NCBI GenBank assembly: GCA_009784275.1
Contig: WRCA01000001.1
Span: forward strand, 129,783-193,782
Direction of reading: 5' to 3'
DNA length: 64,000 nucleotides
Source: Alphaproteobacteria bacterium
GTDB lineage: Bacteria; Pseudomonadota; Alphaproteobacteria; Rs-D84
Positions 5,733 through 47,144 of this stretch are shown in pieces. The number at the start of each line of letters is the position of its first letter. The first letter of the stretch is position 1. Under the pieces are notes generated by a model. That model ran no database searches. It had not been told where the DNA came from and worked only from the letters and a program-made list of their open reading frames with translations. The position numbers and the translations under genes are program-made.

Positions 5733-5828
5733 GTCTTGACAACTTGAATTATAACATAAAATGAGAAATATAAAAATGGCAAAAATGCCGCAATGCGGCA
5801 GCGTAGATTAGTAATTAATTTGTCGATT

Positions 5829-20285: not shown

Positions 20286-20315
20286 TAAAAATCCGCCCGA
20301 AGGCGGATTTTTTTT
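20286..20315. terminator. bidirectional terminator AAAAATCCGCCCGAAGGCGGATTTTTTTTT
   Basis: Hairpin between the convergent genes. Confidence 0.65.
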
Positions 20316-21180
20316 ATTTCAGCGCTTGCTGTATCTGCGCCGCAGGGACTGCGCCCGGGAACGCCTGATCTTGTATGATCAAGAACGGAGTACCTTGGAT
20401 TCCAAACTGTTGCGCCAATTCGCCAACCTGTGCCAATTCATTGTTGACGGTTTCGCTTTTCATATCGGCTTCCAGTTTATCGGCATCCAAGCCAACTTTC
20501 TTTGCCGCCGTCAGGATATTCTTCAAGATCGCTTTTTCCAGCGCTTCTTGGGACTGGCCTTTCAGATCATCCGGCCAATATGGCTTTTCAATCAACAGCT
20601 TATCCAATTCCGCAGCTTTGGTATTGTCTTGGATTTTCGCAGCAATCACTGCACGCGCGGCACCATCTGACAAGACGCCATGGATCGAGAAGTTTTTGAT
20701 GACAACGCGAACGTCTTTGTTGTTTCCCAAGACGGTTAACAACTCTTTATGAACGCGCGCGCAATACGGGCAAGAATAATCAGTGAACAAGAATATTGTT
20801 TTCTTTGCATTCACATCGCCCAGGATCGGAGCATTCGCGACCATTTCTGCCATATGCTTTTTAACATATTTTTTAACTTCCTTGCTAGATTTGCCTTGTT
20901 CCGCATTCTGTGCACCTTTCACCATTTCCATAACGATGCCAGGATTTACATCCGTCAGATAATACGGAGTCCACAAACGCGCAACGCCGATTATCAACAA
21001 AACAATCGATAGCAATTTTATCGATTTTTTCGCGATCATCACGCCAATCGTTGCCGGTTTTTTCATATCATGTTTGATCAGCATTCCGCCGAACAAGTAA
21101 AGAGCGACTGCAATAATCAGCGCCAGGATTGCCCAAGTCATTTTTTCTCCTTTATGTTTGAACGGTATTGAGAGTAGCAA
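20314..21180 (-). CDS. membrane-anchored DsbA-family thiol:disulfide oxidoreductase
   Basis: Two N-terminal TM helices. Thioredoxin-fold domain with DYSCPYCARVH (CPYC active site). Confidence 0.65.
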   Translation of the reverse strand: MLLSIPFKHKGEKMTWAILALIIAVALYLFGGMLIKHDMKKPATIGVMIAKKSIKLLSIVLLIIGVARLWTPYYLTDVNPGIVMEMVKGAQNAEQGKSSKEVKKYVKKHMAEMVANAPILGDVNAKKTIFLFTDYSCPYCARVHKELLTVLGNNKDVRVVIKNFSIHGVLSDGAARAVIAAKIQDNTKAAELDKLLIEKPYWPDDLKGQSQEALEKAILKNILTAAKKVGLDADKLEADMKSETVNNELAQVGELAQQFGIQGTPFLIIQDQAFPGAVPAAQIQQALK

Positions 21181-21302: not shown

Positions 21303-22886
21303 ATGGCAGGCCGCGATCTTATTAATGCTGACAAGACACGCAACCCAAAGAATGATGACAAGCGCTGTTCCAAAAGAACCCTGAAGCCAAAGGCGACCAA
21401 GGAATTTCCTTTTCGATTTCGGGAAACTACACATCTCAAATCCAGAGATGTTTCATACTCCGTATCACTGATGAATATGGATAGCAGAAAACCAATCAAA
21501 AGCATCATACAAGGAGCTTTGGAACCGATCGAGATCATCGCCAAATTCAAAGAAACCCCTGTCGCTATTTTACGTAGCACACGAAACAGTAAGAGATTAA
21601 AGCTCGTAGATTTCAATACCACAGAAATACCGTTCGAACAAGGGGCAGCGTTCATAGATTTTGATTCGGAAAACCGTATTTTTTATGCAATGCCTTTGAA
21701 TGCCTCGGGTAAAGTTATGTCCGAAACAATCAGGAAATATGATCCGAAAGATGGAACTGTAACTCCTATACCTGCCAAAGACTATTTCGACAATATCGCA
21801 TCTGAATCAAGACAGCCATGGTGCGCAGACGAAGCGATAGAACAAAGATTCTTTAATAAGACCGAAATAATAGAAAAAAATACACTGGAAGTTATCGAGG
21901 AAGAATCAGAGAATGAAAAAGAAGAGGTCCCTGTGACTGAATCCCAACCGATTATTCCTATTAAAACCGAAATGGAGGTCGAGCCAACCATTCTTGCCAA
22001 GACCGAAACAGAAGAAATCAAAGATTTCGAAGCTCTTAACAATTTAATAAACTCTAATAAGATGTTCGCTACATTGTTGGCTAAGGAGGTAGCAAATCTT
22101 CTTGTCAACGGAAAGAAAATTGAAACCGTCAAAGAGATCACTCCAAAGGCCAAGCCGGTCAAGATAGTAGAAATTATCGAGGATACGCCTGCCCCAAAGA
22201 TTGAGAAAATTCAAAAGAGATCCAAAAGAGATATCCCTCTTGAAGAGACGACTTTGCCGCAAGCGTTAAATAAAAGACGTAATTGGAAGCCCGGTAAAAA
22301 AGAATCTCTACAAGACATATTAGATAGAATTGCATTCCTGAAAAGCCAAGAACCAAAAAAGCAAAGAACGCGGACAAAGAAAGAGAAAGACACGACCGCT
22401 GCAATCAAACCACTGTCACAGACAACCGCCATAGAAGAAAAACAGATAGTTAAGCTTGATACGCCCGTTACGCTGATTCTGCCACCTGAAAAACCAAAAT
22501 CAGTAACAGTTGTAGAAATTCGGAATGATAACAAATCAAAATCTTTGAAAATCGGCAATCAAATCGTATTGAAAGATGTATTTGGCCTTAACTATGTCCT
22601 TAAAGAAAATAACCAGATATTACATGCTTGGTTCGCTAATAAAGACAACAGCAGAGTGACTGAACACAAATTATTTTATCCCGATGCAAAGCCGGTATAT
22701 ACCCCAAAGGATCCCAAGGCTTTTATCGAGAAGATAGAGATCGAACTTTCTTTCGCAAATTTCTACAGCGTCAGCTATGAACTGAATCCATTAAATCCAA
22801 CCAGATATCAAAAGAAAGATTTTTATTTGGAACTTGAAAATTATAAGAATCTTTTCATGACTATTGATGTACAAAATAAAAAATAA
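21303..22886 (+). CDS. hypothetical Lys/Glu-rich protein, no signal peptide (527 aa)
   Basis: Long ORF, charged low-complexity middle (EEESENEKEEVPVTE..., KIVEIIEDTPAPKIEKIQKRSKR). No known motif. Confidence 0.4.
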   Translation: MAGRDLINADKTRNPKNDDKRCSKRTLKPKATKEFPFRFRETTHLKSRDVSYSVSLMNMDSRKPIKSIIQGALEPIEIIAKFKETPVAILRSTRNSKRLKLVDFNTTEIPFEQGAAFIDFDSENRIFYAMPLNASGKVMSETIRKYDPKDGTVTPIPAKDYFDNIASESRQPWCADEAIEQRFFNKTEIIEKNTLEVIEEESENEKEEVPVTESQPIIPIKTEMEVEPTILAKTETEEIKDFEALNNLINSNKMFATLLAKEVANLLVNGKKIETVKEITPKAKPVKIVEIIEDTPAPKIEKIQKRSKRDIPLEETTLPQALNKRRNWKPGKKESLQDILDRIAFLKSQEPKKQRTRTKKEKDTTAAIKPLSQTTAIEEKQIVKLDTPVTLILPPEKPKSVTVVEIRNDNKSKSLKIGNQIVLKDVFGLNYVLKENNQILHAWFANKDNSRVTEHKLFYPDAKPVYTPKDPKAFIEKIEIELSFANFYSVSYELNPLNPTRYQKKDFYLELENYKNLFMTIDVQNKK

Positions 22887-22921: not shown

Positions 22922-24034
22922 TTATGCCGCTTTCTTCATACCCTGCTTTGCTTCGCGGACGAGTTTGCGCAAGGCATCTATCGATACCAGTGTTCCATCC
23001 CGTTTTTCTGCCGACCAATAATCCCAACCGTTAAAGCTGACCGCGCGCTGTATCCTTGCCGCCATAACATGTATAGAACCTTTGCCATACAAAGCATGCG
23101 ACAGTTGGCCGTCCTTGGTAATCATAACCCTGTCGCCGCGCGGCCCCACCAGGGTTTGTCCCGCATACAACAGTCCGCCATCCAACAATTCCATAAATGA
23201 AACTTTGACTTCTTCGCGTTTCGCCGGCACTTCTATTTCAGACAGATCAATCGGCACAACCGCCGAGATACGACTTTGTGCAGGGGCTATATATTTTCCT
23301 TCCTGCTCTATCCCTATCCAATTCCGCCCCAGTTCCTTTGCAACCGCGCCCGTAGTGCCGCTGCCAAAGAATGGATCAAGTATTACATCGCCCGCGCGTG
23401 TCGATGCCAGGATTATTCTTCGCAGCATATCTGATGGCTTTTGCGTAGTATGCAGGCTCTTCCCGTCATCATCTTTCAACCTTTCCGCCCCCAAGCAGAT
23501 ATCCATTGCCCAATCAGACCGCATTTGCTTGCCACCATTGAACTTTTTCATAGTATCGTAATTAAAGGTATATTTGCCGGTTTTTTCCGGTGTCGCCCAG
23601 ACCAAAGTTTCATGGGCATTTGTAAATCTGGTTCCGCGGAAATTCGGCATAGGATTGGTTTTCACCCAGATTATATCATTCAGAATCCAGAACCCCAAGT
23701 CTTGCATCATAACGCCTACACGGAATATGTTATGATAGCTGCCGATCACCCATAATGATCCGGTTGGTTTAAGAACTCTGCGAACTTCTGTCAGCCACCC
23801 ACGAGTGAAATCATCATATTCCGCCAATGATTCGAAAGAATCCCAATCGTCGCGGACCGCCCGCGCTGCGGTTTGGTCTTCGGGCCTATAGAGTGTTTTA
23901 CGCCCAAGTTGCAGGTTAAACGGGGGATCGGCAAATACTGCATCGACACAACCATCAGGCAGCTTTTTCATCTGCGTAACACAGTCGCCGTGCAAAATCC
24001 GGTTCAGACATTCTCTCACCTCGCATTTTATCAT
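22922..24034 (-). CDS. ccrM: CcrM-like N6-adenine DNA methyltransferase (beta class, GANTC-type family)
   Basis: N-terminal LHGDC...VDAVFADPPFNL, downstream DPFFGSGTTGAVA SAM motif, C-terminal non-catalytic domain as in CcrM. Confidence 0.8.
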   Translation of the reverse strand: MIKCEVRECLNRILHGDCVTQMKKLPDGCVDAVFADPPFNLQLGRKTLYRPEDQTAARAVRDDWDSFESLAEYDDFTRGWLTEVRRVLKPTGSLWVIGSYHNIFRVGVMMQDLGFWILNDIIWVKTNPMPNFRGTRFTNAHETLVWATPEKTGKYTFNYDTMKKFNGGKQMRSDWAMDICLGAERLKDDDGKSLHTTQKPSDMLRRIILASTRAGDVILDPFFGSGTTGAVAKELGRNWIGIEQEGKYIAPAQSRISAVVPIDLSEIEVPAKREEVKVSFMELLDGGLLYAGQTLVGPRGDRVMITKDGQLSHALYGKGSIHVMAARIQRAVSFNGWDYWSAEKRDGTLVSIDALRKLVREAKQGMKKAA

Positions 24035-29393: not shown

Positions 29394-29424
29394 TAAAAAA
29401 ATCCGCCGATTGGCGGATTTTTTA
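29394..29424. terminator. bidirectional terminator AAAAAAATCCGCCGATTGGCGGATTTTTTA
   Basis: Between convergent pgk and the 717 aa gene. Overlaps the latter's stop codon. Confidence 0.65.
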
Positions 29425-31575
29425 TGGAATACAAGCACCACTGACAGTATCCCAGAATGGCGTTGCACTGGGGCAACAAATCTTTCCACCTACTGTTGCT
29501 GGATTGGTTCCCCCCCATTCATATCCTACGGCACACTCACATTCGCCGGTTTCATAGCTCCATGTAGAGTTTTTCGGACAATTACAGGTTTTCGTAGCCA
29601 TGCTCCATGTAGAACGTATCGGGCAATTACAACCAAATGCTGTCGAAGCTGTTCCTGGGACACTCCATGCATTATATGGAGGTTCAGCGCTGCCTTCTCC
29701 TGCGGTATAACACGCGATATCAACGACAAGCGATTCTTTACCGATTCCTAAAGTAGTGGCACAACTTTTAATCACCGACAAGCACGCGTTATATACAGCA
29801 TTTGAAACATATCCGATATCGGTTCCACTGCTGCCGATTATCGCGCCATTTGTTATCAGACATGACTGGACATCGGACTTACAACCTGCCCTGTATTCCG
29901 CAATAATATTATCTTGCCGCGCTTTTATCTGGGTTAACGCTTGGGTCAGGTATTCTTTAACAACCTGATTTTGCGGGTCATAACGTTTGTTGGCCCCGGT
30001 GCTGTAAGTATAAGCCTGGCATCTGTTCAACACGGACATACACATTCCGTAATCTCTGCCATTTTCATTTCTGCCAATCTTTGATACCAAGAAGCTGACC
30101 ATATTGGCGCTGTTGGAATTAAAGTTAGTTATATTCGAACTGATAAATTCGGAAAGCGAACCAGAGTTACCCCATACGCCCCACATGGAGGTAAAGCCCG
30201 GGGCGGTGAAATCGCTGCCAGGGATAACTTCGCCATTAACAATAAACTTGCCGGTCGGATCCAAGCACAATTCGTAATCATTTCCGCAAACAGAATCATT
30301 CTGCATACATGCATCCAACGCGCTGACGCATCCGCGCATATCATAAGAATTCCGGTTTTGCGCCACGACCAAGCGCGCCTTTTGCAGCACTGCCGTCGCA
30401 TTGCGCACTGTCCGTCTCATTTGGGTATTTGAATCATCCAATGCGCGCTCATACTCTATGCACTGTCTGTCGATTTCCAAGTCATAAGAATTTGTTATCA
30501 AGGCCGTATCCACGCCTTGTTTTTTGCAAGTATCCAAAACAGACGCTTTGCAACGGGTCGATGCTGTTTTAAACAATTCTGCCCCGCGCTGGTTCGATAT
30601 AGTGCTGCTGCCCATTCCGAACAACGAACTCAAATCAAACCCGCTTCCGAAATTCAAATCCAAGCTGGCGAAATCCAAGAACCCGTTTTCAAAACCCGTG
30701 CTGCTGCCGCCTTTTACATCCAGAACCAGTTTTTTAATTTTATCCAAATCATTTTTAAGCTGGCTGGTATCCTGGGTTCTTTGCATTTCCTGTTCTGCTT
30801 CGGTTTGAGTGAACAGAGAATTCACTTCGTCCTTGGTAAGACCCAGGTATTGAATTTTCATGGCGACATCTTGCAAGTCTTCGGTCGCCTGCTTTAACGC
30901 ATCTTCGCTCTTTTTGTAATTAGCAATATTGGCGGAACAACTGCACCGGCCCTGGTTATCATCCAGAACATCGCAGAAATTATCCATACAAGCAAAAAAC
31001 TGCGCTTTGCAGAAATCTTCCAGCTGTGCAATTTCTTCCATGCTTACGCCCGTATCAACCGGCGTAGCAGGAGAACTTCCAAACAGCGGCGTTCCCGCCA
31101 TACGTGTTGCGGAAAGCTGCCCTATGGCACTGCCACGAACGCCGACACGCGCATTATACAAAGGTGCTGTCACAGTATCTGACTGCACAATTCCGGCACG
31201 CGCTGTATTTACATTATTCGTGCCACTAGACCGCGTAGCGAGCGTTTTTTCGGGACCTGTCAAAGACATAGAACGAATACTGGTCGCCGCATTGCGTGAA
31301 GCAACCGCGCGGCTGGTCGCCGCTGCGCGTGGCGCAGTTTGCGCGCCCGCCGCCGGAACAGCACGCGTAGCGGAACGCGCCGTCACCGGGGTACGCGCAT
31401 TAAGCGCGGGTTGCCTTAAAATCGGCGCAGTTGCGGGTGCAGAAACTTCTTCGGGGTTTTCGTCATAGAACGGGCTTTCGACCACATCCGTTTCAGACTC
31501 GTAATAGACCGGTGCAACCTCTGCAAACGCGGGCATGCACAGCAGTCCGAACAATACGGGCAAGATTTTCTTCAT
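29422..31575 (-). CDS. large secreted cysteine-rich protein, paralog A (717 aa): signal peptide, Arg/Ser/Ala/Thr-rich repeats, Cys-rich core, C-terminal CxC repeats
   Basis: MKKILPVLFGLLCMPAFA signal peptide. AQFFACMDNFC...RCSCS block shared with the 822 aa protein. About 40 Cys. Confidence 0.6.
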   Translation of the reverse strand: MKKILPVLFGLLCMPAFAEVAPVYYESETDVVESPFYDENPEEVSAPATAPILRQPALNARTPVTARSATRAVPAAGAQTAPRAAATSRAVASRNAATSIRSMSLTGPEKTLATRSSGTNNVNTARAGIVQSDTVTAPLYNARVGVRGSAIGQLSATRMAGTPLFGSSPATPVDTGVSMEEIAQLEDFCKAQFFACMDNFCDVLDDNQGRCSCSANIANYKKSEDALKQATEDLQDVAMKIQYLGLTKDEVNSLFTQTEAEQEMQRTQDTSQLKNDLDKIKKLVLDVKGGSSTGFENGFLDFASLDLNFGSGFDLSSLFGMGSSTISNQRGAELFKTASTRCKASVLDTCKKQGVDTALITNSYDLEIDRQCIEYERALDDSNTQMRRTVRNATAVLQKARLVVAQNRNSYDMRGCVSALDACMQNDSVCGNDYELCLDPTGKFIVNGEVIPGSDFTAPGFTSMWGVWGNSGSLSEFISSNITNFNSNSANMVSFLVSKIGRNENGRDYGMCMSVLNRCQAYTYSTGANKRYDPQNQVVKEYLTQALTQIKARQDNIIAEYRAGCKSDVQSCLITNGAIIGSSGTDIGYVSNAVYNACLSVIKSCATTLGIGKESLVVDIACYTAGEGSAEPPYNAWSVPGTASTAFGCNCPIRSTWSMATKTCNCPKNSTWSYETGECECAVGYEWGGTNPATVGGKICCPSATPFWDTVSGACIP

Positions 31576-31650
31576 TCGAATTCCCTTCCTTATTACAGAA
31601 TTCTATCATTTTTTGCCAATAATGTAAATAGGAAATAGCGCTGACGACGT

Positions 31651-33107: not shown

Positions 33108-34364
33108 TTATATTTCCTTTATCGCAAGAACCTTTTTCAGAGGATACAATATTGCAACCAACATTACAAGTGTTACAGCCATCGTCCATCCAATTCCAAA
33201 TCCATCCATCAAAGGCTTCATCAATATCATCATGCCGCCGCTGATAAATGTAGCGTACATTGAACTAACTGATAAGACTGTGCCACGCTCTGACGATTTA
33301 ATTCTATGATGAATCAAAGTGTTGAATATTAACGAGCTCATTTTCTGACAGGCCGGAACAATCGCGATTATGACACACATAACATATACTATCCACATAT
33401 GTTCGGCGCCCGCAAACAGCGCACCAAACACAGCGGCAATAGCGATAACAACTGCAGCAATGCATGCATACAGAGTTTTTCTTACGCCAAATGATTCATA
33501 AACTTTATGTGCGTATTTCGCAAATAATATTCGCGAAAACTGATTAATCCCGACAAAGATTCCAAACAAGGCGACAGACACTCCAACCGCTTCCATCGTC
33601 GGCTGTAATATCCACATCATGATTAAAGTAAATGACCCAAATATCGCGGGAAACAGCATAAGCCATTTTATCTCTGGATGCTTTACTGACATCTTTACTA
33701 TACCCATTACATCCTTCCAAGGGCTTGTTTCCGGGAATACTTTGCGCCTGACTTCTTGCAATTCAGGCAACGCCAAAATGCACAAGACGCCAAAGAACGC
33801 CACCATGGCTTCTATTGCAACAACCCAATTCCCAATCACTGCATAAAGCGATCCACCTATGACTGCTGCGATGAATCCTGCGGATTGTCCGTATGTGCTG
33901 ATGCTGCCATTTTCTTTCAGGAATTGTTTTTCACGCTTCATGCGTTTCAGCAAGTCATATGCATATGCTTCCTTGGTTCCTGAAAACAATGCTCCGGCCA
34001 GGCCAAGCCCCGCTTCTGCCAGCATAATTTCCCAAAATCCATATGCAAAAAATAGCCCAACCATGGCAAGAAACCACATTATGCTGCCAAGTAAAAGTAC
34101 TTTCTTGCGACTGAATACATCTGACATATATCCGCTGGGGATTTCAAATAGAAATGTGGCGATTAAGAATATTCCCTGGATAAGGAAGAAATCCCCGGTG
34201 GTTATTCCTTTTTCTTGATAAAGCAAAACAATAATTGGGGTGATTATCATAAAATAGATAAAAAACTCGCTCCACTTCAATAAAGATAATGCAGTTTTAT
34301 CTGATACGGTAAACATTTTTATAACCTTTTGTCGGGATTGCATTCGAATCCCGAACGCAATCAT
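33108..34364 (-). CDS. MFS transporter
   Basis: 12 predicted TM helices. MFS motif-A-like loop. Confidence 0.7.
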   Translation of the reverse strand: MIAFGIRMQSRQKVIKMFTVSDKTALSLLKWSEFFIYFMIITPIIVLLYQEKGITTGDFFLIQGIFLIATFLFEIPSGYMSDVFSRKKVLLLGSIMWFLAMVGLFFAYGFWEIMLAEAGLGLAGALFSGTKEAYAYDLLKRMKREKQFLKENGSISTYGQSAGFIAAVIGGSLYAVIGNWVVAIEAMVAFFGVLCILALPELQEVRRKVFPETSPWKDVMGIVKMSVKHPEIKWLMLFPAIFGSFTLIMMWILQPTMEAVGVSVALFGIFVGINQFSRILFAKYAHKVYESFGVRKTLYACIAAVVIAIAAVFGALFAGAEHMWIVYVMCVIIAIVPACQKMSSLIFNTLIHHRIKSSERGTVLSVSSMYATFISGGMMILMKPLMDGFGIGWTMAVTLVMLVAILYPLKKVLAIKEI

Positions 34365-35164
34365 TTTAATTTTTTAAATTCATCATTAATAATTTTATGC
34401 AACTCTGTCGCGATTTCTTTTCTGTCTTTACCCGCCAATGGCGGTGGCGGCAAGATAAACACTTCTACCATAAATCCGCCAATCGAAAAGACATGAAATA
34501 TTTGTCCTATCAAGTTGCGCTCTACCTTGCAATACGGCGGCTGGGTCATTTTGCAATTATCAAAGAATGCATAATCATCCGCCATTATTTGATCCGGTAT
34601 CATGCTGCCATCGCGATAACGATAGAACTGAACAACCGGCTGAACCGTCACATCTTCGCCATTTTCCATAAAATTAAACAAGGTACTTTTAAATGGCAGA
34701 ACATAAGTGCCGCTGGTTGTAGTGCCTTCTGGAAACAAAAACATCGGATAATCTGCCTTGGCCATTTCCTTGCGTAACTTTTCTATGCCTTCCAGCGCAT
34801 GACTGGGGCGGCGATCAATGAAAATCACGCCGAACTTTTTGCACATCCAGCCAACCAAAGGATAACTTTCTATTTCTTTCTTTCCAAAGAAACTGCCGCC
34901 GAATGCAACCGGGAATGTTACCATTTCAAATACTGAAATATGATTGCCGACCACTAATAATGGACGCTTTTTTGATAACTGACCATGCACCTTTATACGT
35001 ATTCCGGCAATCAGCATCACCCCGTTCATAAAGAAACGCAAAGCCCAAAGGCCCAGCCGCGAACCCGTTGGTACAAACAATACAAATATCGCGTTCGGCA
35101 AAATCCACAGCACGAAAAGCAGAAACCGCACAGGTGCAAATAAAATATTAAATATCTTTTTCAT
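34361..35164 (-). CDS. olsA: lysophospholipid acyltransferase (PlsC family), probable lyso-ornithine lipid O-acyltransferase OlsA
   Basis: VVGNHISVFE (HX4D/E-type motif) and FPEGTTTSG motif. Sits directly downstream of the olsB-like gene. Confidence 0.55.
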   Translation of the reverse strand: MKKIFNILFAPVRFLLFVLWILPNAIFVLFVPTGSRLGLWALRFFMNGVMLIAGIRIKVHGQLSKKRPLLVVGNHISVFEMVTFPVAFGGSFFGKKEIESYPLVGWMCKKFGVIFIDRRPSHALEGIEKLRKEMAKADYPMFLFPEGTTTSGTYVLPFKSTLFNFMENGEDVTVQPVVQFYRYRDGSMIPDQIMADDYAFFDNCKMTQPPYCKVERNLIGQIFHVFSIGGFMVEVFILPPPPLAGKDRKEIATELHKIINDEFKKLK

Positions 35165-35166
35165 CT

Positions 35167-36117
35167 TTATTCATCCGTTTGTTTTTCTTCTTCAACCAGC
35201 TCTGCATCGTCGGCATCATCACGCAGGAAAAAATGCGCCGCCGCTTTGAACAAGGCAAATGACCCAGTGAACGGCAATAACATCGCTTTGCCGAACTTCT
35301 TCATTGCGCCCTCTTTCACCTCCAAATGAGCGAATGCCGTTTCAGAGCCAGTTATATATTTTTGATACGCACGGCTGATATTCTTGGTCTGCAAAACTAC
35401 AAATACATCATAAGTATTAAATGGCGCATCGATGAAAACTCCCTTGCCAAATGTTGCCCCCAGGCGCAAGTATCCCTTTAACACCGGTGGCATTTGCGAT
35501 TTTGCCACTGCTTCATCAATGAAATCCCGCGGCAAAATATTCATCTTCGTCAGCTTTGGATTTACCCCGTCAGGCAACTTATCTTTTTCCACCATGGTGC
35601 GCAAAGACAAAGGCGCCAGGTGGTTATAGTACAGATAAGAAATCGCCTGGGCCGATTCCGCCGGTTTTGTCCCAACCCAAGATGCCACCCCGAACAGAAC
35701 CACGATTTTTCGCTTTAATATATACTCTGCCAAGCCCATCCACAGCATGCGTATGACCAAGCCTTCTTCGCGATAATCCGCATCCACGCAAGCCCTGGAC
35801 ATTTCCGCGATATTCCCGCGAACTTTTTTGATTTTCTTTAAATCAAATTCTGTTTCGGTATAAAATCCATCCATTTTTTCAGCGGCATCACGATCGATAA
35901 TGCGATAAGTTCCAACGATTTTACCCTTGTGAAACACCCCCATATAATCTGAATAAAGGTCAAATGAATCATATTCTTCGCGCAGATTTTTCTGTTCCTC
36001 GGTCGCGCTGGCACCTTCTTCTTCAACAAAAACTTTATAGCGCAACTGTCGGACTTGTTTTCTTTCTTCCTTGTTTCTGGTCAACCGGACTTCATAGTCA
36101 CGCACCTTAATAGCCAT
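35167..36117 (-). CDS. olsB: GNAT-family N-acyltransferase, probable ornithine N-acyltransferase OlsB
   Basis: VRQLRYKVFVEEEGA hemolysin-like/OlsB N-terminal motif. Start chosen at MAIKVRDYE, which has an AAGGAG ribosome binding site. Confidence 0.6.
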   Translation of the reverse strand: MAIKVRDYEVRLTRNKEERKQVRQLRYKVFVEEEGASATEEQKNLREEYDSFDLYSDYMGVFHKGKIVGTYRIIDRDAAEKMDGFYTETEFDLKKIKKVRGNIAEMSRACVDADYREEGLVIRMLWMGLAEYILKRKIVVLFGVASWVGTKPAESAQAISYLYYNHLAPLSLRTMVEKDKLPDGVNPKLTKMNILPRDFIDEAVAKSQMPPVLKGYLRLGATFGKGVFIDAPFNTYDVFVVLQTKNISRAYQKYITGSETAFAHLEVKEGAMKKFGKAMLLPFTGSFALFKAAAHFFLRDDADDAELVEEEKQTDE

Positions 36118-36182
36118 AAATAAACTCCTTTGATGATAGGAAAGATAGCAGATAAAGCATATGCATGCAATTAAATTGTAAT

Positions 36183-37148
36183 TTACAGCTTCTCTGCAAG
36201 TTCCGCGATCGCGATCGCATACCAATTCGAATTATTCCATTTCTTTATGCGATAAAAATTCGGATAAGTCAGATATGCCAAGGCCGGACTGAAGTTAGCT
36301 GCATCACACACCAGGCCTGCTTCCATATTAGCATCCGGCACGCCCGCTATATCCATCGCAGCCCATTCGGCCAGCGATTTTTTAGTTTTTCCATCACATA
36401 AGCTAACATCGAAATTTTCTGGCAACTCAACACGACGAACTATTTTTTCATTCGGATTCCAACCCAGTCTATTCAGATAGTTTCCGGCTGAAAACATAGC
36501 ATCGCTTATATTATTTATAATATCAATTCTGCCATCGCCGTTGCCATCTGCACCGTATTGCTGCAGTGTAGTTGGGATAAACTGAAAGTGTCCCATCGCG
36601 CCCGCCCAGCTGCCCCTGACCCCTTCAATCTGAATCCTATTCTTGCTGGAGATTTTCATCAACGCAATCATCTGGTCAGTAAAGAACTGTTCGCGCCGAC
36701 CTTCATAAATCAGCGTTAAAAAAGAATCCGTTAACTTACTGCTGCCTTTGGTTTCACCATAGTTGCTTTCCAGTCCCCAGAACGCCAAGATAACCTCTGG
36801 CGAAACGCCATATTTCTGATGAACCTTGTTCAGCAACGTCGGGTATTTAGCGCGCATCTTATGCCCATTTGCGATACGCTTTTCATTTACCGTTTTTGCC
36901 AGATACTCCCCCAAAGTCAATTTAAATTCTGACTGATTTTGATCCCGCCATACGATTTTTGGAATAAATGCGGCATCTTGGATCGCGGCATTAATAGTAC
37001 GATCATCAACATTTTCCGCAACTGCACGATCTTGAATTTTATTAAGAATCATATTCCAACGATCGAAATCAAATCTTCCTTCTGCGGCATATGTCGCGCC
37101 AGAATAAAGCACAGAGCATAAATAACAGATAAGAGATAATTTTTTCAT
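36183..37148 (-). CDS. mltB: lytic murein transglycosylase, MltB family
   Basis: Signal peptide, FWGLESNYGE catalytic motif, C-terminal peptidoglycan-binding-like region. Confidence 0.7.
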   Translation of the reverse strand: MKKLSLICYLCSVLYSGATYAAEGRFDFDRWNMILNKIQDRAVAENVDDRTINAAIQDAAFIPKIVWRDQNQSEFKLTLGEYLAKTVNEKRIANGHKMRAKYPTLLNKVHQKYGVSPEVILAFWGLESNYGETKGSSKLTDSFLTLIYEGRREQFFTDQMIALMKISSKNRIQIEGVRGSWAGAMGHFQFIPTTLQQYGADGNGDGRIDIINNISDAMFSAGNYLNRLGWNPNEKIVRRVELPENFDVSLCDGKTKKSLAEWAAMDIAGVPDANMEAGLVCDAANFSPALAYLTYPNFYRIKKWNNSNWYAIAIAELAEKL

Positions 37149-37209: not shown

Positions 37210-38685
37210 TTAAAACGCATATTTAACGCCCAAATGAACACCGAATGACTGCCAATTCGCGTACTTCAATGAATCCGGGATGTTCACCGTATGCGCCTCT
37301 ACCGTTTCCAGCACAGGATAACATCCCGCCTGGACTGTCGGATCACAAGGTAGTCCGCTGACATCATTAAATACATACTGGCCAAATTCATCCATCAAAT
37401 AAGTCGTATATGATGCTACAAACAACTTCCCACCAATATTGCCTACATGGAAAAAGTTCGTATCCACTTTCAACGACAGATTCATTCGGTCTGACAGCTT
37501 GTAATTATACTCCATTTCCGCAAGATATGAATATGCGCCGGTGTTGCCTTCGTCGATAAAGCTGGGATTTTGCTGCCAGTCCGTTCTGTTCGGCCATATG
37601 CCTTCGGATGAATAGTGAGGCATTCCGACCTGAACATAAAAACGCAACTTATCCTTGAAAGTCATTTGTTTTTCGACTTCCAGTCCCAGGAAAAGCCCGC
37701 TCCATGTCGTATTATAAATATGCGTTACCCCAGGGACTATTATCGGTCCATCCCCGCCAATAATCACGCACTCGCCCGGTCCGACACCCCATGGCAAATA
37801 CATCCACAGCGGATCATAATCTGTTGTATTTAACGAACCATCAAGATTAACACTGGGCGATCCATCCGGATTTACCGCCGCAACTTTGATATCTTCTGGC
37901 GACAAACAAACTTGATACCAACCATTTTCAGCATATTCTTTGGCCAGACCTTGTGGCACGCTGATAAAAGCGCCAGCCGCATCACCGAAAACATAGTTTC
38001 CGTCCGGTGTTAACAGAGGAAGGTATACCGCAGGGTTCGGATAATAATGATCCGACATTCTTAAATCATGTTTGAAAATTTCGTACCCGATTGACGGCGA
38101 CAGCTTCCATCCCGCCACATCCCACATATGTTTCGCACCAAAACCAAATTTAATATTATTTGTTTTTCCAGTTTGGTTTCCGACTGAAATTGTGAAAATT
38201 CCTATATCAGGTTCTGACCAATTGTATGGTTCCAAGTCATAGTCGATGGAAAATCCAGCGCTGGCCATTGTACCCATGCGATATTCGCCATAAGCGAACA
38301 GGTCATAATTTCTCATAGTGAAATTACTATCCAAACGAACGCCGATTTCGTTATAGACCATATTGCTCCATTCCAAAACCGAATTCACCCCGGTTTTGAA
38401 AGAAAAATCTGCGTATCTTCGGGCATAATCCGCCGACAACACCCATGGCGGTTTTTCATCGGTTGCAACGCCAGCCGGTGTCATTGTTCCGCCAATACCT
38501 GGCGGTAATTCCTGGCGCGGGACTTGATAAGTATAGCTTCGTTGGGCCACTATTTGAGGTTGACGCTGGGTTCCGACATATGTATTTGGCCCAGCTTGGT
38601 AATAAGTCGGCGTTCCTTCACGCGCAGCAAACACCGCCAAAGGCGCAAAAATCCCAAGTAAAACGGCGAAAAAGCCCATTCTCAT
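37210..38685 (-). CDS. outer membrane beta-barrel protein (porin/MOMP-like), 491 aa
   Basis: Signal peptide MRMGFFAVLLGIFAPLAVFAA, alternating amphipathic strands, C-terminal ...GVHLGVKYAF ending in aromatic Phe. Confidence 0.5.
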   Translation of the reverse strand: MRMGFFAVLLGIFAPLAVFAAREGTPTYYQAGPNTYVGTQRQPQIVAQRSYTYQVPRQELPPGIGGTMTPAGVATDEKPPWVLSADYARRYADFSFKTGVNSVLEWSNMVYNEIGVRLDSNFTMRNYDLFAYGEYRMGTMASAGFSIDYDLEPYNWSEPDIGIFTISVGNQTGKTNNIKFGFGAKHMWDVAGWKLSPSIGYEIFKHDLRMSDHYYPNPAVYLPLLTPDGNYVFGDAAGAFISVPQGLAKEYAENGWYQVCLSPEDIKVAAVNPDGSPSVNLDGSLNTTDYDPLWMYLPWGVGPGECVIIGGDGPIIVPGVTHIYNTTWSGLFLGLEVEKQMTFKDKLRFYVQVGMPHYSSEGIWPNRTDWQQNPSFIDEGNTGAYSYLAEMEYNYKLSDRMNLSLKVDTNFFHVGNIGGKLFVASYTTYLMDEFGQYVFNDVSGLPCDPTVQAGCYPVLETVEAHTVNIPDSLKYANWQSFGVHLGVKYAF

Positions 38686-38988: not shown

Positions 38989-40062
38989 ATGTCAAACGCA
39001 AAAAAAATTATCGCTATCGATGCAATGGGGGGGGATAAAGCCCCGCGCTCTGTCTTGGGCGGTATGAATCAATTTTTATTTCAATATGGCGGAGATAATG
39101 TTCTATTCCGTGTTTTCGGGGACGAGCCGCGAATTCGCCGCTTGCTTCGGAAATATCCCCGCGTAGCCCGCCATTCGGAAATCATTCACGCGCCAGGTAA
39201 AATAAAATCTACCGACAAGGTTGTCGAAGTTATTCGTCATTCCGGCGACACATCCATGTATATGGCAATAAAAGATGTTCGCGAAGGCAATTCCTGCGCG
39301 GTTGTTTCTGCCGGAAATACGGGCGTTCTTATGGCTTTGTCAAAACTGGCGCTGAAAACTGTCGAGGGGATTTCCAGGCCTGCGATCACAACCATGCTGC
39401 CCAGCGGCGGTGGCGATCAACGTGTTGTAATCCTCGACCTGGGTGCGAATGTTATATGCGACGAGGAGAACTTATTCGATTTTGCTCTGATGGGAAGCGT
39501 GTATGCCGAAAAAATCGGAAAGATGCCACGCCCAAAAGTTGGCATTCTAAACATCGGGGAAGAAGACACCAAAGGCGACGAAGTTTTACAACGGCTGAAC
39601 AAAGTGTTATCCGAGCATAAGGAAGAATTGCCTTATGAATACATCGGTTTTGTAGAGGGCACAGATATCAGCGGTGGAAATGTTCAGGTTGTGGTAACAG
39701 ACGGATTTACCGGCAATATTGTTTTAAAGACTGTCGAAGGTACGGCAAAGCTGATAAAACGAGTGTTAATGGACACCTTTAAAAAATCTTGGGTTGCGGT
39801 GGCGGTTTCATTCCTATTGATTCATGTCTTCAAACGGCTTAAAAACAAGCTGGATCCACGTGCTTATGCTGGCGCAATATTTTTGGGACTAAATGGGTTT
39901 TCGGTAAAGACTCATGGCAACAGCGATGCCTTGGCTTTTTCGAACGCGATAAAATACGCGTCAGACCTGGCGGATGCCAGCTTTAACGACCAGATAAAAG
40001 CCAGTGCGGAAAAGTTGAAAAATGTGAAGGGTTTATTAAGGGAGAAGACGGATGGGGAATAG
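38989..40062 (+). CDS. plsX: phosphate acyltransferase PlsX
   Basis: IAIDAMGGDKAP and GNTG motifs. Position after rpmF. Confidence 0.85.
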   Translation: MSNAKKIIAIDAMGGDKAPRSVLGGMNQFLFQYGGDNVLFRVFGDEPRIRRLLRKYPRVARHSEIIHAPGKIKSTDKVVEVIRHSGDTSMYMAIKDVREGNSCAVVSAGNTGVLMALSKLALKTVEGISRPAITTMLPSGGGDQRVVILDLGANVICDEENLFDFALMGSVYAEKIGKMPRPKVGILNIGEEDTKGDEVLQRLNKVLSEHKEELPYEYIGFVEGTDISGGNVQVVVTDGFTGNIVLKTVEGTAKLIKRVLMDTFKKSWVAVAVSFLLIHVFKRLKNKLDPRAYAGAIFLGLNGFSVKTHGNSDALAFSNAIKYASDLADASFNDQIKASAEKLKNVKGLLREKTDGE

Positions 40063-43282: not shown

Positions 43283-44370
43283 TTTAATAACCTTACTATC
43301 AAATTGTCCAAAAGCAAAAAATTTTTCGCGACTAATCTATTATCTTTAATCGTCAATTCCGCAGAATTCCAATTAGTGATTTCTTTGATTTCCGGCGTCA
43401 GTTTAACGCCCTGCGTTGTGCGCAACCCAGTAAGCAGGACTTCCAAAGCGCGTTCGCGGTTTTGTAGGGGCGCTTCACGAAGCACCCCTATGGAATCGTA
43501 TTTAGTCTCATACCACTGATTATTTATAAAAACTCTGCCTGCGGCGCCGTCACCCAGACCCAGATAAGGCTGACCATCCCACACATTCGCATTATGCTGG
43601 CACGGGGTTCCATAGTTTGACACTTCGTATCGTTGCAAATTTAATGTTTCGCCCACTGCCTCGTACATCTGCGCCATCGTTTCATTGTCGGGCATTTTTA
43701 GATTTTGTTTTGCAAGCGCCGTACCAGATTCGATAGATAACTCATACATAGAACAATGTTCCAATCCCAATTCATTTATTTGCTGGCAGAGTTTTTTTAC
43801 ATCCGCCACAGTTTGATCCGGCAGTCCATAAATAAAATCTGCGCTGACGCGAATACCCGCGTTTTGCGCGTCCGCAATAAATTTTCGCGCATCTGTCGCA
43901 TTATGAATTCGTCCCAAGAATTTTAGTTCTTCATCATTTAATGACTGCACACCAATAGAAATTCTATTGACGCCTGCGGCGATAAATTCTTGCAAACGCT
44001 GTGTATCGATTGTTCCAGGATTTGCTTCGATTGTAATTTCTGTATCTGGCGCGACATCGAATGCACTGCGGATTGCATTCATGATTTCCGCAAAGATTTT
44101 TGTCGGCATCAAGCTGGGCGTGCCGCCGCCGAAAAAGATCGTTGGCACGGCGGCGCGCCCGATCTTCCCGACCCAAAAATTAATTTCTGATAAGATTTGA
44201 TTTTTATAATCCAGCCAATCGGGCGCACCGCAAACCTTGGAATAAAACGCGCAATAATTACATTTCTTTACGCAGAATGGAACATGGATATAGATATTAT
44301 GCGGTGATACAGTCATACGATTATTGCAGAGCTTTTGGAACATATCCAAAAGTTTCATCATTGATACCAT
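43279..44370 (-). CDS. hemW: radical SAM heme chaperone HemW (HemN-like, oxygen-independent coproporphyrinogen oxidase family); true start probably the ATG at 44316
   Basis: IYIHVPFCVKKCNYCAF CxxxCxxC cluster. 4 nt overlap with the pepO start. The longer ORF overlaps the upstream gene by 50 nt. Confidence 0.75.
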   Translation of the reverse strand: MVSMMKLLDMFQKLCNNRMTVSPHNIYIHVPFCVKKCNYCAFYSKVCGAPDWLDYKNQILSEINFWVGKIGRAAVPTIFFGGGTPSLMPTKIFAEIMNAIRSAFDVAPDTEITIEANPGTIDTQRLQEFIAAGVNRISIGVQSLNDEELKFLGRIHNATDARKFIADAQNAGIRVSADFIYGLPDQTVADVKKLCQQINELGLEHCSMYELSIESGTALAKQNLKMPDNETMAQMYEAVGETLNLQRYEVSNYGTPCQHNANVWDGQPYLGLGDGAAGRVFINNQWYETKYDSIGVLREAPLQNRERALEVLLTGLRTTQGVKLTPEIKEITNWNSAELTIKDNRLVAKNFLLLDNLIVRLLK

Positions 44371-46789
44371 TACAGTATGTTTGACTACCGGTAATTCCAG
44401 ATGTACCAGTAGTCTTCAAACCAAATGGACATACTTTATTATTGAAATCTGCGAAACTTACATCGTCGAGAGGAAGGCTTACTACACTGCGCTGACAGCT
44501 GGTACTATTGCAAAGATCCGGATCATTGCTTGCAACTGCATTTGGATCTGGCTGCAGTATTGCTGGAGTACTTGGATAAGTATTATACCGCTCTGGACTG
44601 CAACCCAACGAAGTACCATTAGCACTACGCCGCCCCCCATTTTCCCAACAGCTGCATATCCCCCAAGATGTCGTGTCTATTTTCTTCCCGTAATCCATCG
44701 GGCACATATTTTCTTCAAATACGCCATTCGCAGAAACTATGTCATACAATACAGCCAGCATTGTGATAAAGCCGCCGGGCGTAGAGAAATCCGCCACGCA
44801 GAATTGAGAATACATATCTGGCGATAAAAATCTTTTTTGAACAAATCTGCCGCCATAGTTCTGACATTCGGAAGACAACCTGTTTGTTATCTGATTATAA
44901 ATTTCCGTCGCGACACCCCGGCTATGCATCGATTTTGGATTAAATGTAGTTCCTTCTTCCAACCCATACGTGCCATTCATTTTGTCGAACCCGCCAAATA
45001 CTTCAAGCGCAAAATCAGCATTGTCATCGGTCTTGAAGTTGCAGGCAGTAACATCAATTAGCTGCCTTGCGCATGGCGATATAACAGACCCGCTTTCATC
45101 CTTGAATGTAAACCAATCCAATGCTCTGCCAGTCGAAAAGATTCCGCTGATCGGATTATAAAAGTTGTTATATCCAACGCCACCGAAGTTATCAAAGCAC
45201 TGCTTAACCACCGCGCGGCAGGAATCCATCAGGTCTTGATTCTTTCTATTTTCAATATACTGCGCGATTATTCCCTGCCCTTCGCCGCGGCTGAACATAT
45301 AATCGCATGCGGTCACATATTTCTGACAAGTTGCATCCTGCAGATCGATCATGCCGGGGGTCAAATCTACCGCGCTGTTAATCAATCCAGCCATTGCCGC
45401 GGTTATCGCATGTGACCCATTCATATAACAAGCCGACACGAAGTCCATGCATCCGGTTTTGATTTCATCGACCTTTTCCCTTTGCGAGTAATAGATTTCC
45501 AGCATCGCTTTATCCAAATAATCCGCCCAGACTTGATCTGCTATCTCGGTACATTTATCCAGCGAAGGTTGAGCAAACTGTCTGACCTTTTTTTCAAATG
45601 TAGTCACAAACGTACGATTGTTCGGATTCCTTGCCAGTTTTTGTTCCCCCAGCGATATATTGCTTGTAAATGACAGCATTTCTTGCAATCTGAAAAACTC
45701 TACTACACCCTCCAACGGTCTGCCTGTTGTTACATCTATGAATTTTCCATTATCAAGACACTTGCGGTATCCCAAACCGCAAACTTCTTCAGACTGCACC
45801 GCTTTCTCAACATTGCGCAAGCATTCTGTCGCGTCCGAAGAATTTCGTTCTTGGCGATCCTGAACGCGCGCCAGGTTCAGCATAGCGCCGCCTTCGCGCA
45901 CAGCAGCAGCCATCTTCTTTTTATTTTCATCTATTTGTCTTTGCACTGTGTTGCAATCTTGCTCCACCGCCATCAAATATGCCGTAACCGCGCGCTGCAA
46001 GGCCGCATCGTTGCAATCACCGCGTACAGCTTCGCGACATTTTCCATAAATCGCGGTATAAAGATTTTTTCCGTTGTATGCCGCAATCGCTTGACCGCTG
46101 TCCATAAAGCCAAATCCCGCGGACTCATCCATTTTTATATTGATGCTGTTCAGGCCTTCGTACGCGCCGCCAACCGTGGCATTTTCACCCTTTATTGAAT
46201 TCATAATCGCTTGCAGCAAAGCCTTGGATGCGGACTTGTCGCCGGTCAGTGCCAGCTCTCCCTCGCTGGCCTTGCGCATGGCTTCTGCTTGGGCGGCGCT
46301 CATCCCGACTACATCCAAAGACTCGGTAAAAGTCGTCAGCTGCGCACCAGCATCCCTCATTACGCCTTGCGCCGCAGTAATGTCATAGATTTTATCCGAG
46401 CAAGAACAACGTTGATAAGTTGGATCTTTTATCGCGCAAAATTGGTCCATACAGGCAAAATAAGCGGACTTGCATTGATCGTACTCCATGCCGGTGCGCG
46501 TGCCGACTGATTGAGTTTCCGTTGCAGCGCGCGCCCTTACCAAAGGTTGTTGCGTTGCGGAACGTGTTGTTTGGACTTGCGTTGCACTGCGTGCAGGTGT
46601 TGATGTTGCAGAGCGTGCTGCAACCTGGGGCGCTGCGCCACGCGTAGAAATATTGGTGGTTGCGCTGCGGCTGACAACCTCTGCCGACGTTGCAGGGCGC
46701 GCAGACCTGGTGACATCACGCGGTGCGGCATCTGCATGATGCGCACAAAACAGCGTCAATCCGATAAAAATCAGAGAAATTTTTTTCAT
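44321..46789 (-). CDS. large secreted cysteine-rich protein, paralog B (822 aa)
   Basis: MKKISLIFIGLTLFCAHHADA signal peptide, RSAT-type repeats, SAYFACMDQFC...RCSCS block and further colinear Cys and motif conservation with the 717 aa protein. Confidence 0.6.
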   Translation of the reverse strand: MKKISLIFIGLTLFCAHHADAAPRDVTRSARPATSAEVVSRSATTNISTRGAAPQVAARSATSTPARSATQVQTTRSATQQPLVRARAATETQSVGTRTGMEYDQCKSAYFACMDQFCAIKDPTYQRCSCSDKIYDITAAQGVMRDAGAQLTTFTESLDVVGMSAAQAEAMRKASEGELALTGDKSASKALLQAIMNSIKGENATVGGAYEGLNSINIKMDESAGFGFMDSGQAIAAYNGKNLYTAIYGKCREAVRGDCNDAALQRAVTAYLMAVEQDCNTVQRQIDENKKKMAAAVREGGAMLNLARVQDRQERNSSDATECLRNVEKAVQSEEVCGLGYRKCLDNGKFIDVTTGRPLEGVVEFFRLQEMLSFTSNISLGEQKLARNPNNRTFVTTFEKKVRQFAQPSLDKCTEIADQVWADYLDKAMLEIYYSQREKVDEIKTGCMDFVSACYMNGSHAITAAMAGLINSAVDLTPGMIDLQDATCQKYVTACDYMFSRGEGQGIIAQYIENRKNQDLMDSCRAVVKQCFDNFGGVGYNNFYNPISGIFSTGRALDWFTFKDESGSVISPCARQLIDVTACNFKTDDNADFALEVFGGFDKMNGTYGLEEGTTFNPKSMHSRGVATEIYNQITNRLSSECQNYGGRFVQKRFLSPDMYSQFCVADFSTPGGFITMLAVLYDIVSANGVFEENMCPMDYGKKIDTTSWGICSCWENGGRRSANGTSLGCSPERYNTYPSTPAILQPDPNAVASNDPDLCNSTSCQRSVVSLPLDDVSFADFNNKVCPFGLKTTGTSGITGSQTYCNGINDETFGYVPKALQ

Positions 46790-46884
46790 TCCTGATGAAA
46801 TTATACAGAATTTTGCAAAGCCCGGTCAATCAGTATTTAATTCTTGCAAAGGGGATTTTTTTGGGATAATATTGCTGTCGCTTG

Positions 46885-46968
46885 CGGATATGGCGGAATT
46901 GGTAGACGCGCTAGTTTCAGGTACTAGTGGGGCGACCCTTGGAAGTTCGAGTCTTCTTATCCGCACCA
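46885..46968 (+). tRNA. tRNA-Leu (anticodon CAG)
   Basis: GCGGATATGGCGGAATTGGTAGACGCGCTAGTTTCAGGTACTAG... long variable arm ...TTCGAGTCTTCTTATCCGCACCA. Confidence 0.85.
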
Positions 46969-46975
46969 TTTTTTA

Positions 46976-47051
46976 GGGGTTGTAGCTCAGTTGGTAGAGC
47001 GCTACGTTCGCATCGTAGAGGTCGTGAGTTCGAGTCTCATCAGCTCCACCA
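46976..47051 (+). tRNA. tRNA-Cys (anticodon GCA)
   Basis: GGGGTTGTAGCTCAGTTGGTAGAGCGCTACGTTCGCATCGTAG...GTTCGAGTCTCATCAGCTCCACCA. Anticodon loop TTCGCAT. Confidence 0.75.
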
Positions 47052-47057
47052 GTTTCT

Positions 47058-47144
47058 GGTCTTGTGGCGGAATGGTAGACGCTGAGGACTTAAAATCCTT
47101 TGGTTATTGCAACCGTGTGGGTTCGAGTCCCACCAAGACCACCA
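47058..47144 (+). tRNA. tRNA-Leu (anticodon UAA)
   Basis: GGTCTTGTGGCGGAATGGTAGACGCTGAGGACTTAAAATCCTT... long variable arm ...GGGTTCGAGTCCCACCAAGACCACCA. Confidence 0.85.

Follow-up and report, generated by a model that had tools for sequence, protein, structure and literature searches.

Two paralogous cysteine-rich exported proteins represent an undescribed family of reduced-genome gut Alphaproteobacteria of the order Rs-D84

Introduction

Two genes in a 64,000-nucleotide stretch of contig WRCA01000001.1 (positions 129,783 to 193,782 of the forward strand, GenBank assembly GCA_009784275.1), hereafter the window, encode large exported proteins that are rich in cysteine, and they raise the question of what such proteins are and what they may do in an alphaproteobacterium of the order Rs-D84. 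A first-pass annotation of the same DNA had proposed that the two products, of 717 and 822 residues (here members A and B), are paralogs from an undescribed family of surface or host-interaction proteins in a symbiont-like genome. Rs-D84 and Candidatus (Ca.) Enterousia are widespread in the guts of humans, livestock, birds and termites; none has been cultured, their genomes are smaller than 1 Mb, the lineage is without lipid biosynthesis, and it is predicted to depend on other cells as an obligate symbiont or parasite that draws metabolites from them (PMC12306168). Rs-D84 has also been found in higher termites that are free of flagellates (PMC11257099). In the literature, we found no description of this protein family or of Rs-D84 surface proteins.

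Results

Members A and B are paralogs

Both open reading frames (ORFs) have exactly the coordinates and lengths given by the first-pass annotation (Table 1), and their products align colinearly over about 518 residues (BLASTP E = 4e-32, 25% identity, 41% positives). The proposed colinear paralogy was thereby confirmed: on this alignment A and B are true paralogs, and the original observation stands as genuine, well beyond what chance would give. The most conspicuous shared block reads FFACMDNFC-x8-RCSCS in A and YFACMDQFC-x8-RCSCS in B; it had been recognised in both proteins, but with a spacer of nine residues in one and eight in the other, whereas the spacer is of eight in both. The motifs VCGNDYELCLDPTGKFI and VCGLGYRKCLDNGKFI were both found, as was the Y...GC...V..C..NG block in A and in B, so the VCG-type and Y...GC...V..C..NG motifs are indeed common to the two sequences. 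The earlier count of about 40 cysteines in each protein was too high, A having 29 (4.0%) and B 31 (3.8%). This is four times the background of the window, the other 46 ORFs of which average 0.91%.

The family hidden Markov model (HMM) gives A a score of 665 bits and B one of 987, and neither this model nor tblastn detected a third copy in the window. The product of 4237-5742 was considered as a third paralog and ruled out (family HMM E = 0.09). This minus-strand ORF encodes a hypothetical protein of about 493-501 residues with a signal peptide, 11 cysteines and no Pfam match. Member A is identical to the deposited 'hypothetical protein FWE50_00830' and was called as a 717-residue gene with no Pfam match in both the ENA and Logan assemblies; B was called on the same ENA contig as an 822-residue gene, also without a Pfam match.

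Each of the two proteins has a signal peptide, a disordered segment rich in Thr, Ala, Ser and Arg, the motif C-x6-CMD.FC-x8-RCSCS and 16 core cysteines in register, and both are laid out in the same four parts: a cleavable signal peptide, a disordered segment, a helical core and a variable C-terminal part. By these sequence features, the two proteins belong to a single family not described before, A representing its A-type and B its B-type.

Table 1. Coordinates of members A and B, their parts and flanking signals, and the DsbA-like gene in the window (aa, amino acid residues; AF2, AlphaFold2; KD, Kyte-Doolittle hydropathy; the arrow marks the cleavage site).
Feature	Coordinates	Strand	Residues (aa)	Basis
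Membrane-anchored DsbA-like thiol:disulfide oxidoreductase, CPYC	20314..21141	-		Pfam DSBA 7.3e-22, Thioredoxin_4 2.2e-18; motif in sequence
A, terminator-like hairpin, 12-bp stem then T-run	29396..29423	-		Sequence
A (A-type), complete gene including stop	29422..31575	-	717	ORF list
A, variable tail, 10 Cys, small beta-hairpin CxC...W modules	29425..29709	-	623-717	AF2, ortholog gaps
A, helical disulfide-stapled core (predicted), 18 conserved Cys, G/S/F/D loop at aa 288-327	29710..31047	-	177-622	AF2, conservation, Cys alignment
A, acidic stretch, then cationic disordered T/A/S/R-rich segment; conserved island at aa 121-150	31048..31521	-	19-176	AF2, composition, conservation profile
A, signal peptide, Sec-type, MKKILPVLFGLLCMPAFA↓EV	31522..31575	-	1-18	Sole hydrophobic window > KD 1.4; site conserved
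A, promoter-like site, TTTACA-17-TAGAAT with TG extension, 10/12 matches	31600..31628	-		Sigma-70-like consensus match only
B (B-type), complete gene including stop	44321..46789	-	822	ORF list
B, B-type-specific conserved alpha/beta C-terminal region, including SWGxCxCWENGGRRS	44324..45289	-	501-822	
B, helical core homologous to the A core	45290..46498	-	98-500	BLASTP, hmmalign, AF2 helices
B, disordered Arg-pentad T/A/S-rich segment, four ARSAT-like motifs	46499..46726	-	22-97	AF2, composition
B, signal peptide, …CAHHADA↓AP	46727..46789	-	1-21	Sequence, hydrophobicity, 'A.AAVRD' junction in B-type consensus
B, promoter-like site, TTGACC-18-TATAAT, 11/12 matches	46800..46829	-		Sigma-70-like consensus match only

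The family is lineage-wide and its duplication old

Searched exhaustively with a profile, 1.84 billion representatives yielded 977 clusters at 50% identity, 441 of them at E <= 1e-30. More than 1,174 proteins are retrieved with A and more than 938 with B, all unnamed or 'hypothetical' and none with a precomputed Pfam domain. Scanning one genome per GTDB species located at least 551 loci, whose records are titled Ca. Enterousia, 'Rickettsiales bacterium' or 'Alphaproteobacteria bacterium', or are evidently mislabelled metagenome-assembled genomes (MAGs). The samples came from human, ruminant, horse, chicken, rodent and termite guts, and the closed chromosomes that carry the family measure 716,531 and 958,618 bp. 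The family is therefore restricted to reduced-genome gut Alphaproteobacteria, namely the order Rs-D84, Ca. Enterousia and relatives. The idea of a symbiont-like genome fits these relatives and their closed genomes of 0.72-0.96 Mb (PMC12306168), and the proposal of an undescribed family is likewise upheld. The family is not particular to this genome, being spread over the 977 clusters lineage-wide, and every deposit is named 'hypothetical protein'.

Among the carriers are MAGs titled 'uncultured Muribaculaceae bacterium' (loci L001, L002, L005, L017, L035 and L039; for example OZ246409.1, the 716,531-bp chromosome). At L001, L002, L005 and L035, neighbours such as ProS, OlsB, PlsX and FabH are 70-81% identical to those of the window. 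The MAGs with this title are evidently mislabelled Rs-D84-type alphaproteobacteria.

A-type and B-type genes also share a contig in other MAGs, LBL75 (84,446-bp contig) and FWF97 (72,955-bp contig), which indicates that the duplication is old and that both copies have been kept. Orthologs of A are 42-56% identical to it, an identity comparable to that of PGK, the M13 peptidase, HemW and the Pom porin at the same loci, and the core columns corresponding to A residues 181-450 are 80-90% conserved. To judge from these alignments, the core is under purifying selection at a housekeeping-like level and not in arms-race evolution, and such a rate argues against a fast-evolving arms-race antigen.

A and B are exported and soluble

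The N-termini of both proteins consist of MKK, a hydrophobic stretch and an AxA-type site (PAFA↓EV in A, ADA↓AP in B). This signal peptide is the only segment of transmembrane-grade hydrophobicity in either protein: outside it, the KD value over 19 residues (KD19) peaks at 1.23 in A and at 1.56 in B. Residues P15, A16, A18 and E19 of the A-type site are invariant in 66 orthologs, while C13, the last residue of a 'GLLC' sequence in A, gives way to V, I or A in many of them. Because PAFA↓E is invariant and C13 is not conserved, the A site is that of signal peptidase I and not a lipobox. We accordingly rejected a lipoprotein identity, B-type proteins having an AxA-type site as well. Neither a transmembrane anchor nor a lipobox nor a beta-barrel was detected in A or B, and the window genes near them include no linked secretion system. 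These features mark both proteins as Sec-exported and soluble.

A helical core predicted to be stapled by disulfides

AF2 was run with alignments of 66 sequences for A and 73 for B. The models predict a core of long helices (up to 51 residues) that is roughly 430 residues in length and spans about residues 179-621 of A and 98-543 of B. The predicted local distance difference test (pLDDT) exceeds 90 over residues 410-620 of A and 520-730 of B. A loop rich in Gly, Ser, Phe and Asp (A 288-327) was left unmodelled, yet its columns are about 70-80% conserved.

To survey the cysteines, 384 family members were aligned to the family HMM with hmmalign. Sixteen positions, numbered 189, 196, 201, 211, 213, 342, 350, 372, 416, 430, 437, 519, 565, 572, 598 and 605 in A, are 100% invariant (368-381 aligned members of the 384), and the alignment places C106...C495 of B on C189...C605 of A. 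Two more, C423 and C512, occur together in 231 members and never one alone, and CX6C pairs, with their i/i+7 spacing, recur on the predicted helices. An even number of cysteines, together with strict gain and loss by pairs, points to structural disulfides, and these in turn to an oxidising, extracytoplasmic location. We infer that the invariant cysteines form eight disulfides, with a ninth (C423-C512) in A-type proteins. The helix spacing, the export signal and a nearby DsbA fit this assignment. The gene for the latter, a membrane-anchored protein with a CPYC active site, lies 8 kb from A and shows that a periplasmic enzyme for disulfide formation has been retained in this reduced genome; it is the likely catalyst for exported proteins.

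A disordered segment with arginine at every fifth position

Residues 14-176 of A and 16-97 of B have pLDDT values below 50 and are predicted to be disordered. Across 316 members this segment varies from 90 to 310 residues and consists mainly of Thr (18%), Ala (17%), Ser (13%), Arg (10.5%) and Val (9%), with 1.5% Lys and essentially no Cys, Trp, His or Phe. Residues 41-160 of A contain 13 arginines and a single lysine, and in A-type proteins an acidic stretch precedes the Arg-rich part. The arginines are strikingly periodic. In the pre-core segments of 303 members, a spacing of exactly five occurs 981 times, where shuffles lead one to expect 304 (z = 41, a value that overstates independence because the member sequences are related), and gaps of one to three are strongly depleted, adjacent arginines being avoided. 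The segment can thus be described, in effect, as a degenerate R-x4 pentad filled with small or hydroxyl residues. We know of no described motif with such an every-fifth-Arg, Lys-poor pattern.

The layout proposed earlier, a signal peptide followed by an Arg/Ser/Ala/Thr low-complexity region with RSAT-type repeats, is present in both proteins as regards its two elements, but the repeats are not repeats of the DNA: we found no DNA tandem repeats under the region, and the 'RSAT repeats' are therefore a degenerate periodicity of the peptide, not repeats of recent origin.

A modular, variable C-terminus

Beyond the core, the two types diverge, AF2 predicting beta hairpins in A (634-716) and an alpha/beta region in B (about 556-822). 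The tail of A in the window is poorly conserved and gapped among orthologs, being common only to close relatives. Overall, A-type tails range from none to about 1,700 residues of small Cys-rich modules, each of about 28-40 residues with 4-6 cysteines (CxC...W...C), arranged in tandem arrays and predicted to form beta hairpins, and some members reach 1,200-2,338 residues by way of arrays of CxC...W modules or other Cys-rich repeats. At five loci with tandem paralogs, the cores are 71-77% identical, and tail length and cysteine number differ. The C-terminus is thus modular and variable.

Comparison with known families

No Pfam model scored above threshold in A, B, 66 A-type members, five long members or isolated tails, and for the isolated tails this held even at E up to 10. 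There were no matches in NCBIfam or PHROGs, none in PDB searches with profiles built from the alignments of the two types (E up to 1), and none in PDB phmmer searches with two long members at E up to 0.1. The earlier remark that no known-domain signature is recognisable thus extends to more than 70 members scanned against Pfam and NCBIfam at threshold. Two outcomes had been named beforehand as speaking against the proposal, a match to a characterised family and a failure of A and B to align, and neither was seen. The family is an orphan in sequence and, to the extent that the PDB can show it, in predicted fold.

Candidate relationships were examined and set aside one by one, and all the testable membership features of the known families named here failed. 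A match to FTA4 in 42 of the 66 members (best E = 1.4e-4, below its cutoff) was dismissed as reflecting coiled-coil composition at residues 214-288. The other sub-threshold Pfam matches were Laminin_II (2.3e-4, in one of 66), Pvs28 EGF (0.036-0.057), TIL (0.057) and DUF5874 (0.005). An adhesin of EGF/laminin type was rejected on these sub-threshold values and on the empty PDB phmmer searches of long members, and a relative of chlamydial OmcB (Chlam_OMP6, DUF11) on the lack of a Pfam match and on the alpha-helical models. The Sel1-like repeats of Hcp (PF08238, about 36 residues, each with a Cys pair) were not detected by Pfam. F-type TraN gave no Pfam match either, and the neighbours are chromosomal housekeeping and envelope genes with no tra genes among them. 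A type V autotransporter was discarded in view of the missing autotransporter Pfam domain and of C-termini made of Cys-rich hairpins (A) or alpha/beta structure (B); a PMP-repeat autotransporter in related loci is recognised by Pfam, unlike A and B. A phage tail fibre, receptor-binding or viral origin found no backing in PHROGs (0 matches) or in an IMG/VR scan, which revealed no relative. The gut-fungal CysRRep repeats (10.64898/2026.06.07.730663) differ in cysteine spacing.

The overall plan, that of a modular, disulfide-rich envelope protein exported by a host-dependent bacterium, is already known; it is the family itself that is undescribed. Four known systems come closest to it in design. 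OmcB is a Sec-exported, Cys-rich protein with a basic N-terminal segment and beta-sandwich DUF11-type repeats, found in reduced, host-dependent Gram-negative bacteria. A and B resemble it as Sec-exported Cys-rich proteins of about 60-90 kDa in a host-dependent reduced genome, with a basic segment before the Cys-rich body, and chlamydia-type envelope parts occur here too (a Pom porin in the window, PMP autotransporters in relatives). They differ in lacking any sequence or fold relationship to it, being predicted long-helix bundles, and in their basic segment, a long Arg-pentad T/A/S-rich region as opposed to the short heparin-binding motif of OmcB. Helicobacter Hcp proteins are exported and alpha-helical, with regularly spaced Cys pairs that staple the helices. 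The recurring CX6C pairs on the helices of A and B are comparable by design, but A and B have no Sel1 repeats or core periodicity, are much larger, and add the disordered N-terminal segment and modular tails. Among eukaryotic parasites, trypanosome VSG/HpHbR-type bundles and Plasmodium DBL/RH5-type domains are elongated helical bundles with conserved disulfides, displayed on the surface of obligately host-dependent organisms and in some cases encoded by multigene families. Their general design is similar, and low-scoring fold matches include 4wjg, 6d03 and 9ftd, none significant; there is no homology, however, and A and B are bacterial, with a strongly conserved core that is not antigenically variable. 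EGF/laminin-type modules, finally, recall the tandem small Cys-rich modules of A-type tails, but no Pfam model, whether EGF, laminin-EGF, TIL or another, scores above its threshold there.

Promoters and genomic neighbourhood

Each gene had been credited with its own promoter region, and sigma-70-like sites indeed lie upstream of both, as consensus matches only. That of A stands downstream of a terminator-like hairpin that follows proS. There is no terminator between B and hemW, and the last 50 nt of B (44321-44370) overlap the longest hemW ORF, which makes an internal ATG the probable true hemW start. Divergent from B and 94 bp upstream of it lies a tRNA-Leu/Ala/Leu cluster (46884-47144).

The DNA of the window is ordinary chromosome. 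On one flank of A it encodes an SLT-domain transglycosylase, RNase HII and PGK, and on the other ProS, an MFS transporter, acyltransferases like OlsA and OlsB, MltB and a Protochlamydia-type Pom porin; PlsX, FabH, the M13 peptidase and HemW lie between the Pom/MltB block and B, and past B the three tRNA genes are followed by rplM and rpsI. No conserved operon partner or secretion system emerged, and neighbourhoods vary between genera. A B-type ortholog adjoins lpxA and lpxB, and the neighbourhoods lean towards envelope and lipid biogenesis. In other genera, at 58 of 80 species-level loci, the A-type gene is divergent from a gene for a lipoprotein with two phospholipase D (PLD)-type HKD domains (about 521 residues, PLDc_2 5e-34, median gap 242 bp; for example L038:1812-3377, minus strand). 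This pairing, absent from the window, may reflect a functional link to A-type proteins, such as lipid acquisition, or merely inherited synteny.

Other genes of the window and of related loci deserve mention in their own right. The Pom porin homolog (37210-38685, minus strand; Pfam Pom 1.5e-9) is encoded by an alphaproteobacterium, and related genomes carry autotransporter-like proteins of about 900 residues with Chlamydia PMP repeats (L062:9421-12129, minus strand); the Rs-D84 lineage thus possesses chlamydia-like envelope components. The OlsA-like acyltransferase gene adjoins that of an OlsB-like GNAT (Acetyltransf_5/FeeM) at 34361-36225 (minus strand), a pair which suggests that a lineage reported to be without fatty-acid biosynthesis makes ornithine lipid or some other N-acyl amino-acid lipid. 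PlsX and FabH are also encoded, at 38989-40990. At 22922-24034 (minus strand) lies the gene for an N6/N4 DNA methyltransferase that has a RAMA domain, beside that for a 527-residue protein without a Pfam domain (21303-22886, plus strand), and the two may constitute a restriction-modification or other defence pair. Further ORFs without a Pfam domain lie at 47355-48020 (minus), 2460-4240 (plus), 56841-57881 (plus) and 57923-58762 (minus). Among these Pfam-less ORFs are a 279-residue protein with a signal peptide and no cysteine, possibly a small outer-membrane beta-barrel, and a 221-residue protein with six cysteines that adjoins the B promoter region.

Discussion

What might such proteins do? 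A surface or host-interaction role, as put forward in the first-pass annotation, is plausible but unproven, and we tentatively propose that A and B are structural adhesins, associated with the envelope or displayed at the surface, with a variable binding tail. DsbA, encoded nearby, would make the disulfides in the oxidising periplasm; the cationic Arg-pentad segment would tether the protein to an anionic envelope polymer such as lipopolysaccharide or peptidoglycan; the rigid disulfide-stapled helical core would serve as a stalk; and contact with the partner cell, or with the host surface on which these metabolically dependent bacteria live, would fall to the variable C-terminal modules. This reading is favoured by the export signal, the disulfide-type cysteine pattern with DsbA close by, the modular tail, the cationic periodic segment, the envelope and lipid neighbourhood and the predicted dependence of the lineage on other cells. 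A bolder version, which we consider unlikely, would see in the family a new class of fold among helical surface proteins stapled by disulfides, one that makes up the main apparatus of cell-cell attachment, or the coat, throughout the order Rs-D84, with the invariant core as stalk, the Arg-pentad as a novel envelope tether and the expandable tails setting partner specificity.

Several observations weigh against an adhesin. A Sec signal that is accompanied by no beta-barrel, lipid anchor or linked type II or type V secretion genes leaves the periplasm as the default location; no known adhesin, lectin or Ig-like domain was detected in the members scanned; and no partner organism is known for these bacteria. 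Conserved at a housekeeping-like level, the core and the B-type C-terminal region suit a structural role in the envelope equally well or better, pLDDT values reach only 55-85 over the first half of the core, and the envelope and lipid neighbourhood lends weak support, since the genome holds only about 900 genes and the genera differ.

These same points bear on a less likely alternative, in which the proteins would stay within the periplasm, or line the outer membrane from inside, as a disulfide-stabilised, possibly cross-linked structural layer, by analogy with chlamydial OmcB/OmcA, the Arg-rich segment binding peptidoglycan or lipid head groups. Disulfide cross-linking between molecules into such an outer-membrane complex would find its support in the invariant cysteines and the DsbA. 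A periplasmic scaffold of this kind would account for a Sec signal with no device for outer-membrane translocation in the protein or its neighbourhood, for the housekeeping-like conservation of the core and for the retention of both paralogs across the lineage, and it would suit the envelope neighbours (the Protochlamydia-type Pom porin, lytic transglycosylases, Lpx/Ols genes) and the chlamydia-like envelope elements signalled by Chlamydia-type PMP autotransporters in related genomes. Yet variable Cys-rich tails of 1,000-1,700 residues and the tail divergence of tandem paralogs look outward-facing and specificity-determining, and the predicted helical fold is unlike the beta-repeats of OmcB. 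A general Cys-rich outer-membrane complex of the chlamydial sort is also unsupported, the Pom-like porin having only four cysteines. A secreted effector or membrane-active toxin, whose long-helix core would insert into or remodel a partner membrane, perhaps with the PLD-like lipoprotein harvesting lipids, appears improbable. The best Foldseek matches are indeed to TcA, colicin Ia and pyocin S5, the unmodelled G/S/F/D-rich loop is conserved, the PLD-like lipoprotein gene is divergently paired with the A-type gene at most of the loci compared, and the lineage is without lipid biosynthesis (PMC12306168); but those matches (E >= 0.17, TM < 0.11) are not significant, the KD19 maxima outside the signal peptide leave no hydrophobic helical hairpin, nine disulfides would hinder the large refolding of pore formers, no immunity gene is evident, and the window has no PLD pairing.

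The cysteines themselves could be read differently, as ligands of Zn, Fe or Cu or as a redox buffer in a metal- or ligand-binding periplasmic protein. High cysteine content, CxC and CC motifs, and anaerobic gut habitats, in which disulfides do not form without a dedicated oxidant, would agree with this, but the even number of invariant cysteines, the strictly paired gain and loss of C423 and C512, the i/i+7 spacing on helices, the presence of DsbA, the absence of CxxCH or CxxC-rich clusters and the near absence of His make it a quite improbable explanation. Least probable by far is a highly divergent member of a characterised family (EGF/laminin adhesins, Sel1-like Hcp, F-type TraN or chlamydial OmcB). 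Its superficial likeness (Cys-rich, exported, with CxC tail modules) and the sub-threshold Pfam matches in isolated members stand against more than 70 members with no Pfam or NCBIfam match at threshold and PDB profile searches that were empty at E up to 1, and we regard it as largely refuted already.

A and B occupy about 4.6 kb of the genome. The retention of both paralogs throughout the lineage, their near-consensus promoters and the 16 invariant cysteines make the family one of the strongest candidates for machinery of the envelope or of attachment that defines the lineage. It is a clean target for the definition of a new domain family, its core is a candidate for structural work on an apparently unrecognised fold, and it could yield antibodies or baits with which to localise the cells and find their partner. 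Were the proteins only periplasmic scaffolds, the interest would be narrower and lineage-specific. If instead they prove to be a coat or attachment apparatus, they would parallel, in bacteria, the Cys-stabilised helical coats that eukaryotic parasites wear, and would offer a handle on identifying the partner of these widespread gut bacteria.

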